DNA of 64,000 nucleotides, taken from a virus. The stretch covers positions 1 to 64,000 of IMG/VR virus record IMGVR_UViG_3300001269_000001; one strand, given 5' to 3'. The notes below the pieces were generated by a model. The model was not told the DNA's origin, did not search any database, and saw only the letters and a program-made list of their open reading frames with translations. The position numbers and the translations under genes are program-made. Position 1 is the first letter of the stretch, and each line of letters begins with the position of its first letter. Positions 28,244 to 32,763 of the stretch are shown piece by piece.

Positions 28244-28681
28244 ATGAAAAAGGTTCAAAAAATACTGACGACAAGTCTAAGTAATAATAATCTTAGACCT
28301 CTTGTTATAGAGTGTTTTGTAATGGTTCTCGTCCTAAGTATACCCTTCATATATAACATATGGATGAGTGTGGACGAGAACCACCTTATTGAGGGTTACG
28401 GAAAACTTAGGAGTTTTGTATGGACAGTTTCAGAGAGCATAAATGTTCTTATAATAATAGTTTGCTGGTTTCTAACTGTTAGGGGTCAATTTTATAAAGC
28501 TTTGTGCTGTGTTCTTTTCAGCTTCTACCTGATAATACTTGTTGAAAAGCTGAGAGTTGATGTTATGATTGTAAGAAACTACTTCTACTACATAGAGTGG
28601 GGGTGTTCAATATCAATACTTATAGTTTATAAAATATTTAAAAGGCCACCTTTCATTATAAAAAAAACATCTGATGAGTGA
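28244..28681 (+). CDS. Multi-pass membrane protein
   Basis: The track start at 28232 is a TTG, and the first ATG is at 28244. There are about four hydrophobic segments (for example VIECFVMVLVLSIPFIY and CCVLFSFYLIILV). Confidence 0.55.
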   Translation: MKKVQKILTTSLSNNNLRPLVIECFVMVLVLSIPFIYNIWMSVDENHLIEGYGKLRSFVWTVSESINVLIIIVCWFLTVRGQFYKALCCVLFSFYLIILVEKLRVDVMIVRNYFYYIEWGCSISILIVYKIFKRPPFIIKKTSDE

Positions 28682-29537
28682 TTTTCTTAGTAAGTTAGAA
28701 TCTGCATCGATTGATATACTTGAAACCCTTGAGAATGCTATAGAGAAGGCTTCTAATAGCGGCAAACTCTCAGGAGGTGGTTGGATAACTATAAACGGAA
28801 AACACGTTTATATTGGATCTAATGGTAAGGTTCAAGCTGGAGCTGTTTATGGAAAAAATGGTGAAAAGATAACCTCAGGAGAAAAGATATATAGCTCTGA
28901 AAAAAACAACTCTGGGTCAGGTGAAGATAAGGAAAGCAAAGAGAGTGATAAGTCAAGCAAGGTTGAAAAACCAAAAAAAATAAAGAACCAGTCGGCAGGT
29001 TCTAGTGATAAAGAGGGTGAAGATTCTAGTAGTTGTAAAGACAACCCTGATGCTCAATCATACTTTCAATCATATGAATCTATGATGGGGTCTCTTTCTG
29101 GTGAGCAGCTTTCAGCACTTAGTGAATATAGAAACGGAGACTATAAGTCAGTAAAGTCACTACTTAGGTCGTCAGGAAGTTCTAACCAAACAAAGCTAAT
29201 TGATAGTTCATTTGAAAAGGTTAAGGCACCATCACCTACATCCTCTTTTAAGGGCCTGTCTGACAGTTCTTTCTTTGAAGTTGTTGATGAAGGGTCAATC
29301 TTTACAGACAAGGCATATGTGTCTGTAACAATAAACTCAGACTCACAAGATAAATTTTATGAAAATGATGGTTATTCAGTTGAAGTTAAGATCCCTAAAG
29401 GAAGTAGTGTAATACCTTTTCAAAATATAGGCAGCTCTGACATACATGATGATGAGTGCGAGCTTTTACTGCCACGGGATAGTAAATTCAAAGTTTTGAA
29501 AAAGATTGGTAAAAACCTTATAGTTGAGTTAATATGA
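28674..29537 (+). CDS. Protein with a C-terminal ADP-ribosyltransferase-like (C3/VIP2-type) domain
   Basis: LSEYRNGDYKSVKSLLR resembles Y..x.Y..IN..LR. It is followed by FKG (where YRG is expected), YVSVT (STS-like) and ECELLLPRDSKFKV (ExE plus LLPRGSKF). Confidence 0.6.
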   Translation: MSDFLSKLESASIDILETLENAIEKASNSGKLSGGGWITINGKHVYIGSNGKVQAGAVYGKNGEKITSGEKIYSSEKNNSGSGEDKESKESDKSSKVEKPKKIKNQSAGSSDKEGEDSSSCKDNPDAQSYFQSYESMMGSLSGEQLSALSEYRNGDYKSVKSLLRSSGSSNQTKLIDSSFEKVKAPSPTSSFKGLSDSSFFEVVDEGSIFTDKAYVSVTINSDSQDKFYENDGYSVEVKIPKGSSVIPFQNIGSSDIHDDECELLLPRDSKFKVLKKIGKNLIVELI

Positions 29538-29659
29538 AAAGAAAGACAAGATTTATATCAAAAAAAGGAGAGCTTAGCCTTGTAAAAGCTGATGAGGTTA
29601 AGAAGTCACAAGACATATCCAGTGTTATTGAGTTTATTAGAAACCTCTCTAAAGACTAA
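29534..29659 (+). CDS. Small basic ORF (41 aa, below the track cutoff)
   Basis: Hand translation gives MKRKTRFISKKGELSLVKADEVKKSQDISSVIEFIRNLSKD. Its ATG overlaps the upstream TGA. Confidence 0.3.
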   Translation: MKRKTRFISKKGELSLVKADEVKKSQDISSVIEFIRNLSKD

Positions 29660-29701
29660 TTCATACCAGCACAGATCCCCTAGAAACTTTTATAAAAATT
29701 T

Positions 29702-30305: not shown

Positions 30306-30318
30306 AAAAAACATACAC

Positions 30319-31671
30319 ATGCCTTTAAATGATGAAAATGGTAATAGGTTGATGTTTGAGCTTCAAAAAGTTCATGCTCAACAGCTTGGTGAGGTTGATG
30401 ATAAGTTCATCCAGTCACGTGAGGTGATTCAATATGTACTTGATGAATCTTATGACGGTGCCTCTTTTTCCTCTAGTACATCAAGTGTAGGTACAGTTCA
30501 AGAGGACGACTTTTCAGATAGTGATGATTTTAACAATAATTACAATACTGTTGGTATTGGAACATTTACTCCAAGTGCAAATGGTCTTTCCACTTCTGGT
30601 GGAGTTGGAAACTATGCAACGTATGTTGAGTATGATAACCCTAACAGCGATCATAGTGCAACATCACTTGAGAAGTGGAAAATGTCTACTGTCATTACGA
30701 CAGGTACTATTGGTGTTGGCAACTTTGGCCTTTCACTTGGAATTAAAAGCACTAACACTGAGGATGCTAGGGACGTTGCTGTAAGGCTTGCTATGGATGC
30801 TGTAGCTTTCGCGGGTAAGCTACAGTTCTTTAAGGTCAATAATGGAAGTGAGTCTGCGCTATCTATTAGTGACACTGCATTTAACATTCAAGATAATACT
30901 GATTACTTCTTTGAGCTTGAACGTGACGGTCAGTCACTTATTGCATCAGTTTATGAAGCAAATCTTACTGCTGGGGAGTATGTAAAAGGTGCTTTACTAA
31001 AACAAGAAACTGAGGTTTTTCAGCTAAAAACGGTTGCTAATACAACCGCTATGCACAATACGGGTAGGTTTGCAATATTCCAGAATGGAGGTAACCAGCT
31101 CGTAAGAAAGCTTGAAATAACCTCAGGAGAACCTATTGGTGTAACAAACCTTGCGATTGGTGACAGTAACATAGCAGGTCTTTGGGCTAGAAACATATCT
31201 CAAAGATACTTTAACTTGGTAAATAACTCAATAGGGCAGTCATTTGCGGTAAGTGCTGGTGTTGCTGACTTAACCCAATCAGCAATAGATAAGATTGATG
31301 AGATCAAAAAGTATGGAGCTAAAAACATATACATCAACTTAGGATCTAATGATGTTGCTTTTGGCATATCTCAGGCTGTATGGGAGGCAAACCTCAATAC
31401 TTTGATATCAGAGCTTTCAGCAAATGCAAACATAATCCTTGGAACCCCAATTGCAAGGAATGCAGCCAACTTAACAGCCCTTGTAGCTTTTATAAAATCC
31501 AAGGCTAGTGACCCAAATGTTGCTGCAATTGCAGACCTTCATGAGGTGACAAATGTTGATGCTGATGACAACCTGTTTGCTGACTACAATTCTGGTGACA
31601 ATATTCACATGAATTACGAAGGTAATAGGGCTTGTGCTCAAGAACTTTTAAATGCATATAACTTTATATAG
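30319..31671 (+). CDS. Two-domain protein with a C-terminal SGNH/GDSL hydrolase
   Basis: LAIGDSNIAG (block I, GDS), INLGSNDV (block III, GxND) and GDNIHMN (block V, DxxH). ATG 30319 is preferred over the track start at 30256. Confidence 0.7.
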   Translation: MPLNDENGNRLMFELQKVHAQQLGEVDDKFIQSREVIQYVLDESYDGASFSSSTSSVGTVQEDDFSDSDDFNNNYNTVGIGTFTPSANGLSTSGGVGNYATYVEYDNPNSDHSATSLEKWKMSTVITTGTIGVGNFGLSLGIKSTNTEDARDVAVRLAMDAVAFAGKLQFFKVNNGSESALSISDTAFNIQDNTDYFFELERDGQSLIASVYEANLTAGEYVKGALLKQETEVFQLKTVANTTAMHNTGRFAIFQNGGNQLVRKLEITSGEPIGVTNLAIGDSNIAGLWARNISQRYFNLVNNSIGQSFAVSAGVADLTQSAIDKIDEIKKYGAKNIYINLGSNDVAFGISQAVWEANLNTLISELSANANIILGTPIARNAANLTALVAFIKSKASDPNVAAIADLHEVTNVDADDNLFADYNSGDNIHMNYEGNRACAQELLNAYNFI

Positions 31672-32763
31672 ATGAATAGACTCTTTAAAAAGCTAATCTC
31701 AAAGTTTTCAAGTGGGGGTGGTGAGCTATCGCTCCCCTTGGAAAGCTTCTTGATGGACATAAAAAAATCGATAGCAACGAGTGAGGGTGAATTGATAAAC
31801 ACACAGCTTGAGTTTAATTCAACAAACGACAGGCTAACTTCTATGTTAGAACTTTGTGATATTGAAATTAAGAAGGGTGGTGAGAATAGCATAAGTAATC
31901 GTAAATTTATAGAGTCTAAAATAGAGAGGAATACAGAATCTTTTGTTGAAAAGATAATAAATATAAACAAATCAATAAAAGATGACAAAGAATCTGTTGA
32001 AGAGTTTAGAAAAGCTTGCTTTTCAGAGATTGAAAATAAAAATGAAGAGAGTAAGGGTGCATTTTTATTGGCAATAAATGATTTTCAGAAGGGTATTTTA
32101 AAATCATCTTCTGGATCTATTGTTTCTGACAAGGATTTGGCAATAGCGGTTGCAATGGGTAAAGCTGGCATAAGCAAAGCTACAAAAGATGAGTTTGACT
32201 GTATGTGCAAGTCAGGTAGTGATCAAAATGTAGAGGATAGCCCACCCAAACCTGTTACATCAAAAAACTCAGTTGCCGTAATTGTAAAGGATAGCGTTGG
32301 TAGAACACTTTTTCTTAAGAGAAATTCAACTGACGACTTTCATCCGAATACATGGTGCTTACCCGGGGGAGGTATTGATTCTGGTGAGAGCCCAATAGAA
32401 GCTGCTGTAAGAGAGCTTAAGGAAGAGTCTAATATATTTATAGAAGTACCTGACCTGATCCTTAGTGACATCATTGAAGTTGAAAGTGGTAAAAAAATAC
32501 ATTATTACACACACAATCTTAGGAAAGACCTTGAAAAACCTATTGCTACCTTAGATGGCGAGATGTCCAACTATGTTTTTTTAGACCCATCAGAGTACTG
32601 TGAATATGACCTTATATTGGATTTAAAAGACCACCTTCTAAGGATAGAAACCTCACAAGCAAATATGTTCAAGGCATTTAATAAGCAGTCGATTCAAAAA
32701 GCCTTTAACATAAAGGCAATAGATGAAGAAAAGTATAATTCACTAAAAGAAATAATTGGGTAA
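31672..32763 (+). CDS. NUDIX hydrolase with a long N-terminal helical extension
   Basis: The Nudix box GGGIDSGESPIEAAVRELKEESNI (32365-32436) fits Gx5Ex7REUxEExGU. Confidence 0.85.
   Translation: MNRLFKKLISKFSSGGGELSLPLESFLMDIKKSIATSEGELINTQLEFNSTNDRLTSMLELCDIEIKKGGENSISNRKFIESKIERNTESFVEKIININKSIKDDKESVEEFRKACFSEIENKNEESKGAFLLAINDFQKGILKSSSGSIVSDKDLAIAVAMGKAGISKATKDEFDCMCKSGSDQNVEDSPPKPVTSKNSVAVIVKDSVGRTLFLKRNSTDDFHPNTWCLPGGGIDSGESPIEAAVRELKEESNIFIEVPDLILSDIIEVESGKKIHYYTHNLRKDLEKPIATLDGEMSNYVFLDPSEYCEYDLILDLKDHLLRIETSQANMFKAFNKQSIQKAFNIKAIDEEKYNSLKEIIG

Follow-up and report, generated by a model that had tools for sequence, protein, structure and literature searches.

Polyvalent proteins were defined, and argued to be packaged and injected, by Iyer et al. 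(2017, PMC5512222). ADP-ribosyltransferases (ARTs) and Nudix proteins are often encoded among, or fused to, the portal, MuF and capsid-peptidase genes of myoviruses and are probably packaged in the head (Iyer et al. 2022, PMC9503650). In the 2017 study NUDIX is barely mentioned, and ARTs of the Alt/VIP2 type are atypical of genuine polyvalent proteins, in which the H-Y-D type prevails (PMC5512222). In this study we analyzed a run of enzyme genes, encoding an ART-like protein, an SGNH hydrolase and a NUDIX hydrolase, that lies between the portal and prohead protease genes in positions 1 to 64,000 of the IMG/VR virus record IMGVR_UViG_3300001269_000001 (this 64,000-nt stretch is called the window below). 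The original prediction held that these genes may encode packaged effectors, and in view of the 2017 and 2022 papers that idea is an instance of a published prediction.

The window resembles the arrangement described by Iyer et al. (2022, PMC9503650) in having Nudix and Alt/VIP2 ART genes amid portal and capsid-protease genes; in that description they are expressed together with the virion genes, and their products were proposed to be packaged and injected and to act on NAD/ADP-ribose (ADPr)-related targets. That paper, however, puts its weight on a T4 NudE-like clade and on direct fusions with the capsid peptidase, the portal or MuF, whereas the window genes are separate and come without a MuF gene, and the window NUDIX resembles T4 NudE at the Nudix box only, with no ADPr/NAD link found. 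Likeness to the polyvalent proteins (PMC5512222) lies in the 800-1,900-aa proteins of related phages that join NUDIX with helicase, ART, DUF5661 or DUF3626, in the multi-ART giants among the closest homologues of the window ART, with which it shares a repeated module (here named WVTING), and in the position of the window genes among virion genes, on the same strand and tightly packed. The window proteins differ in carrying one enzymatic domain each, multi-domain forms occurring in relatives (loci L012, L168 and L010).

The window ART belongs to the same R-S-E Alt/VIP2 clade as T4 Alt and is proposed to share with it a leader, trimming by the protease and injection with the DNA; it differs in having Lys at the Arg position, and its packaging is a proposal. 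The T4 alt gene is not located in a portal-protease interval, and the T4 gp21 protease uses L/I-x-E sites. Phage P1 packages a helicase/methylase (Dar proteins). With the fusions of MuF (SPP1 gp7/Mu gpF) to toxins there is a parallel in the MuF-like protein that follows the portal in relatives and in about 13 ORFs that fuse MuF and ART, but a MuF domain is absent from the window ART, whose WVTING module is unrelated to MuF (hhalign probability 0.06). The giant phage SPN3US is reported to package many non-structural proteins in its head and to eject them into the cell, a short motif directing their cleavage by the prohead protease (PMC10052503). The capsid lineages, proteins and cleavage motif of SPN3US and P1 are unrelated to those studied here, and those two cases have proteomic proof where the present one is a prediction from genes.

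We consider it an evenly balanced proposition that the NUDIX and ART-like proteins of the window are co-assembled into the prohead, trimmed, kept in the capsid and released with the DNA, the other genes of the interval not being cargo. What this analysis adds to the published predictions is the delimitation of a clade with a NUDIX-anchored slot, a candidate cleavage motif and a variant ART with lysine at position 193 (K193); the membrane proteins, the SGNH protein and a 186-aa protein of the same interval probably have other roles.

Organization of the portal-to-capsid region

Domains were called with Pfam and PHROG profiles. All ORFs and domains named in the original prediction (membrane proteins, ART-like protein, 186-aa protein, SGNH hydrolase, and NUDIX with its N-terminal extension) were confirmed on the + strand, and the portal end and the protease start are 5,001 bp apart. 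The features of the region are listed below.

26094-26105, + strand: promoter-like motif TTAGTATTTTTG, copy 1, 19 nt 5' of the portal ATG
26124-27761, + strand: portal protein, 545 aa (Pfam Phage_portal 3.7e-23; phrog_12 1e-46)
27773-28681, + strand: three small predicted membrane proteins, 66, 86 and 149 aa (hydropathy)
28674-29537, + strand: ART-like protein, 287 aa (PF03496 ADPrib_exo_Tox 2e-13, aa 133-275)
29534-29659, + strand: putative 41-aa basic ORF of uncertain coding status, its start overlapping the ART stop (ATGA)
29702-29713, + strand: promoter-like motif TTAGTATTTTTG, copy 2, 32 nt 5' of the 186-aa ORF
29745-30305, + strand: 186-aa orphan protein, no significant family
30319-31671, + strand: lectin-like plus SGNH esterase protein, 450 aa (PF13472, Lipase_GDSL_2, 4.2e-10, aa 279-438)
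31672-32763, + strand: NUDIX hydrolase, 363 aa (PF00293 1e-15, aa 199-309)
32763-34361, + strand: prohead protease, 532 aa, with the protease at aa 1-160 and a long charged scaffold-like C-terminal region (phrog_1028 'head maturation protease' 3e-44)
34377-35882, + strand: major capsid protein (MCP), SPO1/phi812 type (phrog_752 3e-69)
35911-35938, + strand: intrinsic-terminator-like hairpin, 12-bp stem and T8, closing the portal-to-capsid unit after the MCP gene

The junctions are tight: the 149-aa membrane ORF and the ART gene overlap by 8 nt, the ART gene and the 41-aa ORF share ATGA, the SGNH/NUDIX junction reads TAGATG, and the stop of NUDIX overlaps the start of the protease in TAATG. The base composition is unremarkable. 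His61 and Ser119 of the protease are invariant in the protease alignment. The window has no nucleotide-level match among deposited phages. Its MCP is 54% identical to that of Chryseobacterium phage MA9V-3 and 38% to those of the Bacteroides phage DAC series, followed by the SPO1-like Herelleviridae at about 30%; the best PDB match of the MCP is SPO1 Gp6.1 (2e-42), and the phi812 MCP was also matched. The clade is a large, almost entirely uncultured group of Bacteroidota-type myoviruses with SPO1-like capsids.

The portal-protease interval in related phages

IMG/VR was scanned in two rounds, first with the protease alignment, which gave 19 loci, and second with a MuF-like family, which gave 231 relatives, 80 loci being examined with local HMMs. 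In the Herelleviridae outgroup (Bacillus phage Nachito) only 84 bp lie between portal and protease, and in MA9V-3 and DAC19 the two genes are several kb apart with a NUDIX gene just upstream of the protease. MA9V-3 encodes the NUDIX protein XQU63093.1, the 1,459-aa protein XQU63094.1 and the MuF-like XQU63097.1; the proteins of interest in DAC19 are DAC19_201 and DAC19_206. The adjacency in Nachito therefore makes the slot a feature of the clade. The interval that had been read as an insertion has the stated length of about 5 kb and is not a private acquisition; it represents the local form of an accessory slot that is hypervariable across the clade and belongs to the head operon.

The canonical gene order in the clade is portal, (holin), MuF-like protein, NUDIX-bearing ORF, protease and capsid. 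NUDIX was found upstream of the protease in 14 of the 19 first-round loci and in 30 of the 36 non-redundant second-round loci (83%) having both MuF and protease. The distance from portal start to protease start is 4.1-15.1 kb, and the slot itself measures 2.5 to 13.5 kb among relatives. The NUDIX-bearing ORFs of the second-round loci range from 202 to 1,894 aa (median 666), and the large slot proteins of the first round include NUDIX with UvrD helicase (1,519 aa, L012), NUDIX with DUF5661 (957 aa), NUDIX with DUF3626 (817 aa, L010) and a 1,055-aa protein with a C-terminal NUDIX; a topoisomerase IB also neighbours NUDIX in the first-round loci. In relatives NUDIX is usually one domain of a multidomain protein that stands beside the MuF-like protein. 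The MuF-like proteins, recognized by clustering, form a conserved family of about 305 aa with an HPxCRC signature, and three of seven members match Pfam Phage_Mu_F. This family is near-universal in the slot of the clade, and the window follows the canonical order apart from having no detectable MuF-like gene in its 64 kb.

Other kinds of gene share the slot. A Pfam scan of 61 further slot ORFs of relatives identified Phage_holin_4_1 (4 members), lysozyme, amidase and muramidase, as well as GIY-YIG/NUMOD3 homing endonucleases and a methyltransferase. In L009 and L012 the Phage_holin_4_1 gene stands immediately beside NUDIX or the protease.

The window also encodes a stand-alone UvrD-like helicase (17277-18764) that is homologous to the helicase part of the 1,519-aa NUDIX plus helicase slot protein (L012, 295-4854), with 30% identity over 508 aa (E = 1e-57).

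A candidate processing motif

Conservation of the MCP begins past a variable leader of about 20 aa, at (E/D)L.KA(M/I).AG..TGRD, and the Bacillus phage has this element too. When the strict motif [LIVM].KA..[AS]G was searched in 50 + strand proteins of the window, it was found only in the portal (aa 26), ART (aa 23) and MCP (aa 23), at LLEK28|A29LNSG, AIEK25|A26SNSG and ELIK25|A26ISAG respectively, so that the three proteins share the N-terminal motif Φ-x-K-A-x-x-[AS]-G. The PDB has two phi812-type MCP chains (5lii, 463 aa; 9row, 439 aa), the longer of which has exactly 24 extra residues at its N-terminus. These deposited lengths would place the mature phi812 N-terminus after DVVK|SFQTG, which aligns to ELIK25|A26 of the window; by this alignment the corresponding cuts would fall at K25|A26 in ART and at K28|A29 in the portal. 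A published cleavage site for the phi812 or Herelleviridae MCP was not found in usable form in the literature.

The motif is also enriched beyond the window. In relaxed form it had 20 hits in the pre-capsid ORFs of the first loci against 1.9 in shuffles, eight of them being one conserved site in the protease domain, compared with 4 against 1.6 for tail ORFs. In 40 non-redundant NUDIX-bearing ORFs there were nine hits with 0.9 expected, and six of the nine lie 2-18 aa from a NUDIX domain boundary and are like that phage's own MCP site (for example, KIIKAVSAGQIS in L143, whose MCP has DIVKAMEAGLGT). The shorter form Φ-x-K-[AS] occurs in the first 50 residues of 6 of 12 head-block proteins of the window, including NUDIX (DIKK32|SIATS), versus 4 of 38 other window proteins. 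The SGNH and 186-aa proteins lack an N-terminal K|(A/S) leader. We regard the shared motif as a testable lead for a prohead-protease site of the MCP type.

The protease-domain site mentioned above, (I/V)xKA(M/R/I/L)ITG, is conserved at aa 135-142 of the window protease and in orthologues, matching the relaxed motif in 8 loci; it could be an autoprocessing site or a mere part of the fold.

The ART-like protein

The ART domain scored 50.6 bits against a PF03496 cutoff of 23.4 (E = 2e-13), and an exhaustive search gave 627 homologues at E < 1e-3. Its nearest relatives among these comprise both small ARTs and multi-ART giants, which reach 2,356 aa with four ART copies. A 25-aa leader ends in AIEK25|A26SNSG (28737-28763) and is followed by the WITINGKHVYIG module (28782-28817), a Ser/Lys/Glu-rich linker and the Alt/VIP2-type ART domain, which was aligned to VIP2, ExoT and C2-I from the PDB. 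E261-C-E263 occupies invariant columns and aligns to E-K-E of VIP2, and within the S-T-S motif S217 is invariant, Val replaces the Thr of the second position and T219 takes the third. The identification as an ART thus holds for the PF03496 match and E261-x-E263, has a mixed outcome at S-T-S, and fails at the catalytic arginine, which is discussed with the proposed explanation below.

The N-terminal 65 aa of the protein (…AIEKASNSGKLSGGGWITINGKHVYIGSNGKVQAGAVYGKNGE) constitute the mobile WVTING module, which has no Pfam family. It also heads the non-ART proteins P0082 and P0134 and repeats between the domains of large proteins, with three copies in P0017 and four in P0126 (with PARP-like ARTs). 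Its pattern, GGxWVTI(N/D)GxHV(Y/F)IG…, lies at aa 14-65 of the window ART (28713-28868). As a candidate origin, a relic of the MuF C-terminal hairpin was ruled out by the hhalign probability given above.

In the protease-based sample the ART had appeared unique to the window among its relatives, a view that was overturned by scans with ART and MuF alignments: ART occurs within the slot in 6 of 54 non-redundant clade loci, with R, S and ExE retained in each of these six proteins. Their positions are as follows.

L027/L128: right after the portal
L131: adjoining a 202-aa NUDIX gene
L160 and L173: between NUDIX and protease
L029: upstream of a 1,139-aa NUDIX protein
L168: fused with NUDIX in one 1,106-aa ORF

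Among the ART homologues, about 13 IMG/VR ORFs fuse a MuF motif and ART. On viral contigs the homologues often form tandem arrays of paralogues (L027-L106), with up to six ART ORFs in L054. Single-protein scans of IMG/VR, a metagenome collection and word-indexed proteins recovered, as close relatives of the window ART and NUDIX, only the window's own proteins.

The NUDIX hydrolase

The NUDIX domain scored 58.3 bits against a PF00293 cutoff of 21.1. Its fold (aa ~199-325) stands behind an N-terminal extension of about 195 aa and is followed by a post-domain K-A-F module. The Nudix box GGIDSGESPIEAAVRELKEESNI (aa 233-255, 32368-32436) is intact, only the penultimate G of GX5EX7REUXEEXGU being replaced by N, and REUXEE is kept in 11 of 12 orthologues. 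Common to the orthologues are the N-terminal coiled-coil extension and, flanking the domain, short modules that follow the pattern K[AS]F..G.[IM][ST]..[ED]Y.

Nudix enzymes carry specificity signatures past the box, namely Pro at +16 in ADPRases, SQPWPFPxS in NADH pyrophosphatases and Tyr at +18 in ApnA hydrolases. None of these three signatures is present in the post-box sequence FIEVPDLILSDIIEVESGK of the window NUDIX. The PDB matches were a mix of Ap4A, MutT, NUDT1 and DIPP enzymes (E ~1e-5 to 1e-3), and BLASTP aligned T4 NudE over only 60 aa around the box (E = 6e-4). The suggestion that ART and NUDIX act together on NAD or ADP-ribose draws its best support from the L168 fusion and finds none in the NUDIX sequence, which has no ADPR- or NAD-specific signature; mere co-occurrence of the two genes carries no information, given that nearly the whole clade has NUDIX. 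Literature searches gave nothing usable on virion-proteomic detection of a phage Nudix protein.

Transcription signals

The 12-mer TTAGTATTTTTG is present in exactly two copies in 64 kb, with 0.08 expected and 0 of 100 shuffles reaching two, and the block's one sizeable intergenic gap holds its second copy. Variants with 1-2 mismatches occur in other + strand intergenic gaps (40233, 42770 and ~48768). It fits the Bacteroidetes -7 element TAnnTTTG, and we presume that it functions as a promoter. The hairpin at 35911-35938 is the region's only strong + strand terminator. A scan for sigma-70 consensus promoters gave 58 matches versus 60.7 in shuffles, no better than chance.

The - strand module (1-16.2 kb) has a different upstream element, TTGAYCCAAATAAAAT, in eight copies (416-9104), and no good copy of this early-type element lies between 26 and 36 kb. 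Because the head and enzyme genes share TTAGTATTTTTG, the terminator follows the MCP gene and early-type elements are missing at 26-36 kb, the enzyme cluster, co-oriented with the head genes, is probably co-transcribed with them in two units. The motif on which the original prediction relied is thus real, its label as 'late' being our reading, and expression of the enzyme genes with the virion genes agrees with their position in the head operon.

In the - strand module, TTGAYCCAAATAAAAT…TACGAATATTAGGTTTT followed by TAnCTTTG precedes small genes at 416-9104 and probably represents a family of repeats with an early-promoter or regulatory role. At ~24150 there is a promoter-like element of host type, TAACTTTG. 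The - and + strand modules are separated by a 645-bp, very AT-rich divergent intergenic region (16215-16859) that contains numerous TATATA/ATAATAT palindromic repeats; it may be an origin or have a regulatory role.

Membrane, SGNH and 186-aa proteins

The membrane proteins of 66, 86 and 149 aa have 1, 1 and 3-4 hydrophobic segments by hydropathy and no family match in Pfam or PHROG; the window holds no homologue of the relatives' endolysins. Since the slot of relatives contains Phage_holin_4_1 holins and lysozyme, the trio is read, by position and topology, as probably a holin-type lysis cassette, which explains it better than the packaged cargo it had been taken for. An endolysin and a MuF-like gene may lie in the ~33 kb of the 96.7-kb contig beyond the window.

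The 450-aa protein starts with an acidic, Ser-rich N-terminus; a ConA/LamG-like beta-sandwich occupies aa ~119-266, and aa 279-438 form an SGNH esterase (PF13472 score 40.8 bits, cutoff 32.9) with intact catalytic blocks (GDS281-283, GSND342-345 and D427-N-I-H430). Foldseek matches of its AF2 model (LNS/LamG, galectin, CBM66, CBA120 TSP2, Dit lectin modules and acetyl xylan esterase) are tentative and only indicative because the model is poor (pLDDT 46.7). In 5.8 billion proteins it has one distant homologue, P0003 (33% identity), whose gene directly follows that of a 971-aa beta-helix tailspike-like protein. The 186-aa protein likewise has one distant homologue there, P0154, in which its C-terminal beta-rich module of ~85 aa is tandemly duplicated; further matches are weak (phrog_1236 'head protein' 0.0015; CARDB 0.038), and AF2 gave a pLDDT of 33 only. 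PDB sequence searches with both proteins were uninformative, and neither has a homologue in ~180 related loci. The 843-aa slot protein of L009 bears an SGNH domain, to which that of the window was found to have no specific relationship.

Phage SGNH esterases on tail spikes are known. It is possible, although doubtful, that the 186-aa and SGNH proteins sit on the virion exterior or are freed at lysis and bind or de-O-acetylate capsule, lipopolysaccharide (LPS) or peptidoglycan, modifying or destroying a receptor. The architecture of a carbohydrate-binding-type beta-sandwich with an esterase, the tailspike-like neighbour of P0003, the missing K|(A/S) leader, and the repeated 186-aa module with its weak 'head protein' and CARDB matches are all consistent with such a role. 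The location of the genes in the head block and not with the tail-fibre genes (52-56 kb), the low-confidence SGNH model, the lack of a context-giving homologue in the related loci and the unrelated SGNH domain within the L009 slot protein speak against it. That the SGNH protein acts outside the capsid, on envelope glycans, is no less likely than that it is internal cargo. As packaged cargo, the place given to the two proteins by the original prediction, both fare poorly, being orphans without the leader motif, one of them with a homologue beside a tailspike-like gene.

Proposed explanation and alternatives

Head packaging of ART and NUDIX is plausible. In the proposed scheme, both proteins would be made alongside the head proteins and co-assembled into the prohead, where the prohead protease would trim them at Φ-x-K|(A/S) sites resembling the N-terminal site of the MCP; the trimmed products would stay in the capsid and enter the host with the DNA. 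There NUDIX might hydrolyse a nucleoside-diphosphate-X substrate, candidates being ADP-ribose-derived immune signals, NAD or NAD-capped RNA, and 5'-triphosphate RNA, and the ART module might bind or modify a host target, with K193 possibly making it weak or inactive. The core of the slot would be the NUDIX gene directly before the protease/scaffold gene, to which it is here apparently coupled in translation, and the 186-aa protein and the lectin-like SGNH esterase would be lineage-specific additions, the esterase acting most plausibly on acetylated envelope glycans. The packaged-effector idea accordingly narrows: the adjacency of NUDIX and protease, the large multidomain NUDIX proteins near MuF, the recurrence of ART, the place in a head operon free of early-type elements and the leader motif (weaker in NUDIX than in ART) argue for it, and the membrane trio, SGNH and 186-aa proteins drop out of it. 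Contextual signatures of this sort underlie the head-packaging predictions of Iyer et al. (PMC5512222, PMC9503650).

A bolder version is a tentative possibility. It says that the slot of the clade builds head-packaged effector polyproteins on NUDIX, which the prohead protease would cut at MCP-type sites at domain boundaries, freeing NUDIX, ART, helicase and other modules within the capsid for injection, much as viral polyproteins are processed; the window would then be a split-gene version with a Lys-substituted, possibly repurposed ART.

Several points weigh against packaging of NUDIX and ART. Packaging, cleavage and ejection are all predictions from sequence and gene context, and the phi812 cut to which the sites were aligned is itself deduced from chain lengths. 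The processing motif is a short one that was defined post hoc, and of it the window NUDIX retains no more than the Φ-x-K-A core. When the post-NUDIX module was compared with the MCP N-terminus as a candidate homologue, the best hhalign fell on the motif but was not significant (E = 0.05). The window has no Pfam Phage_Mu_F match, and the clade-family HMM found nothing in it at E <= 10. In the ART, the column of the catalytic Arg is occupied by K193 (SSFKGLS, 29250-29252), where Arg is present in 9 of 9 closest homologues and 6 of 6 clade ARTs (15/15), and V218 replaces a near-invariant Thr. Replacement of the catalytic Arg by Lys is a classic inactivating or detoxifying change in pertussis and heat-labile toxins, so that the catalytic competence of the window ART is doubtful. 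The NUDIX of DAC19 (L002, 11327-12007) has lost the GX5E glutamate and has K for R in REUXEE, and may be catalytically dead. Finally, slot position alone is no evidence of packaging, because holins, lysins and GIY-YIG homing endonucleases share the slot.

These last observations also feed a rival that we consider rather unlikely, in which the slot is a permissive site of the late operon and its products are cytoplasmic and unpackaged: NUDIX would clear ADP-ribose/NAD breakdown products, damaged nucleotides or RNA caps late in infection, and ART would be a decaying moron. Besides the non-virion genes of the relatives' slot (holins, lysozyme, amidase, muramidase, GIY-YIG/NUMOD3), its range of lengths (2.5 to 13.5 kb), the altered ART active site and the window's want of a MuF partner would all fit such a site. 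It accounts less well for NUDIX standing next to the protease in 83% of loci, for giant NUDIX fusions beside MuF and for the enrichment of MCP-like motifs both at NUDIX domain boundaries and in the N-terminal parts of portal, ART and NUDIX, and a cytoplasmic housekeeping enzyme has no need of 1,000-aa fusions to helicase or ART. That NUDIX and ART enter the head yet work there chiefly as internal proteins without a catalytic role (assembly or DNA condensation, like the T4 internal proteins) with partly vestigial folds is very improbable: K193 and V218, the degraded DAC19 box and the long charged, low-complexity or coiled-coil extensions suit it, but the Nudix box is kept in 11 of 12 orthologues and R, S and ExE in all six clade ARTs, which indicates selection on catalysis across the clade.

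Neighbouring genes

Between the large terminase and the portal (24193-25820) are genes for a patatin-like phospholipase (Pfam 7.7e-22) and an RNase T/DEDD exonuclease (8.8e-14), so that enzyme genes are interleaved upstream of the portal too. Just past the post-capsid terminator, a 140-aa acidic protein (35994-36416) without a family match has Φ-x-K|S at aa 34-37.

Significance

The value of this analysis lies in a delimited clade, a candidate processing motif and a natural K-for-R ART, and no new principle is involved. The shared cleavage-type motif predicts neo-N-termini at defined residues (for the window, A26 of ART, A26 of the MCP, A29 of the portal, and S33 and/or A344 of NUDIX), and such predictions can be checked in two cultured relatives, MA9V-3 and DAC19. 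If packaging is true, the virions of a widespread clade of Bacteroidota phages, from the gut and the environment, would deliver NUDIX as a core enzyme, and it would act before phage gene expression, when NAD/ADPr defences and takeover at the RNA level matter.

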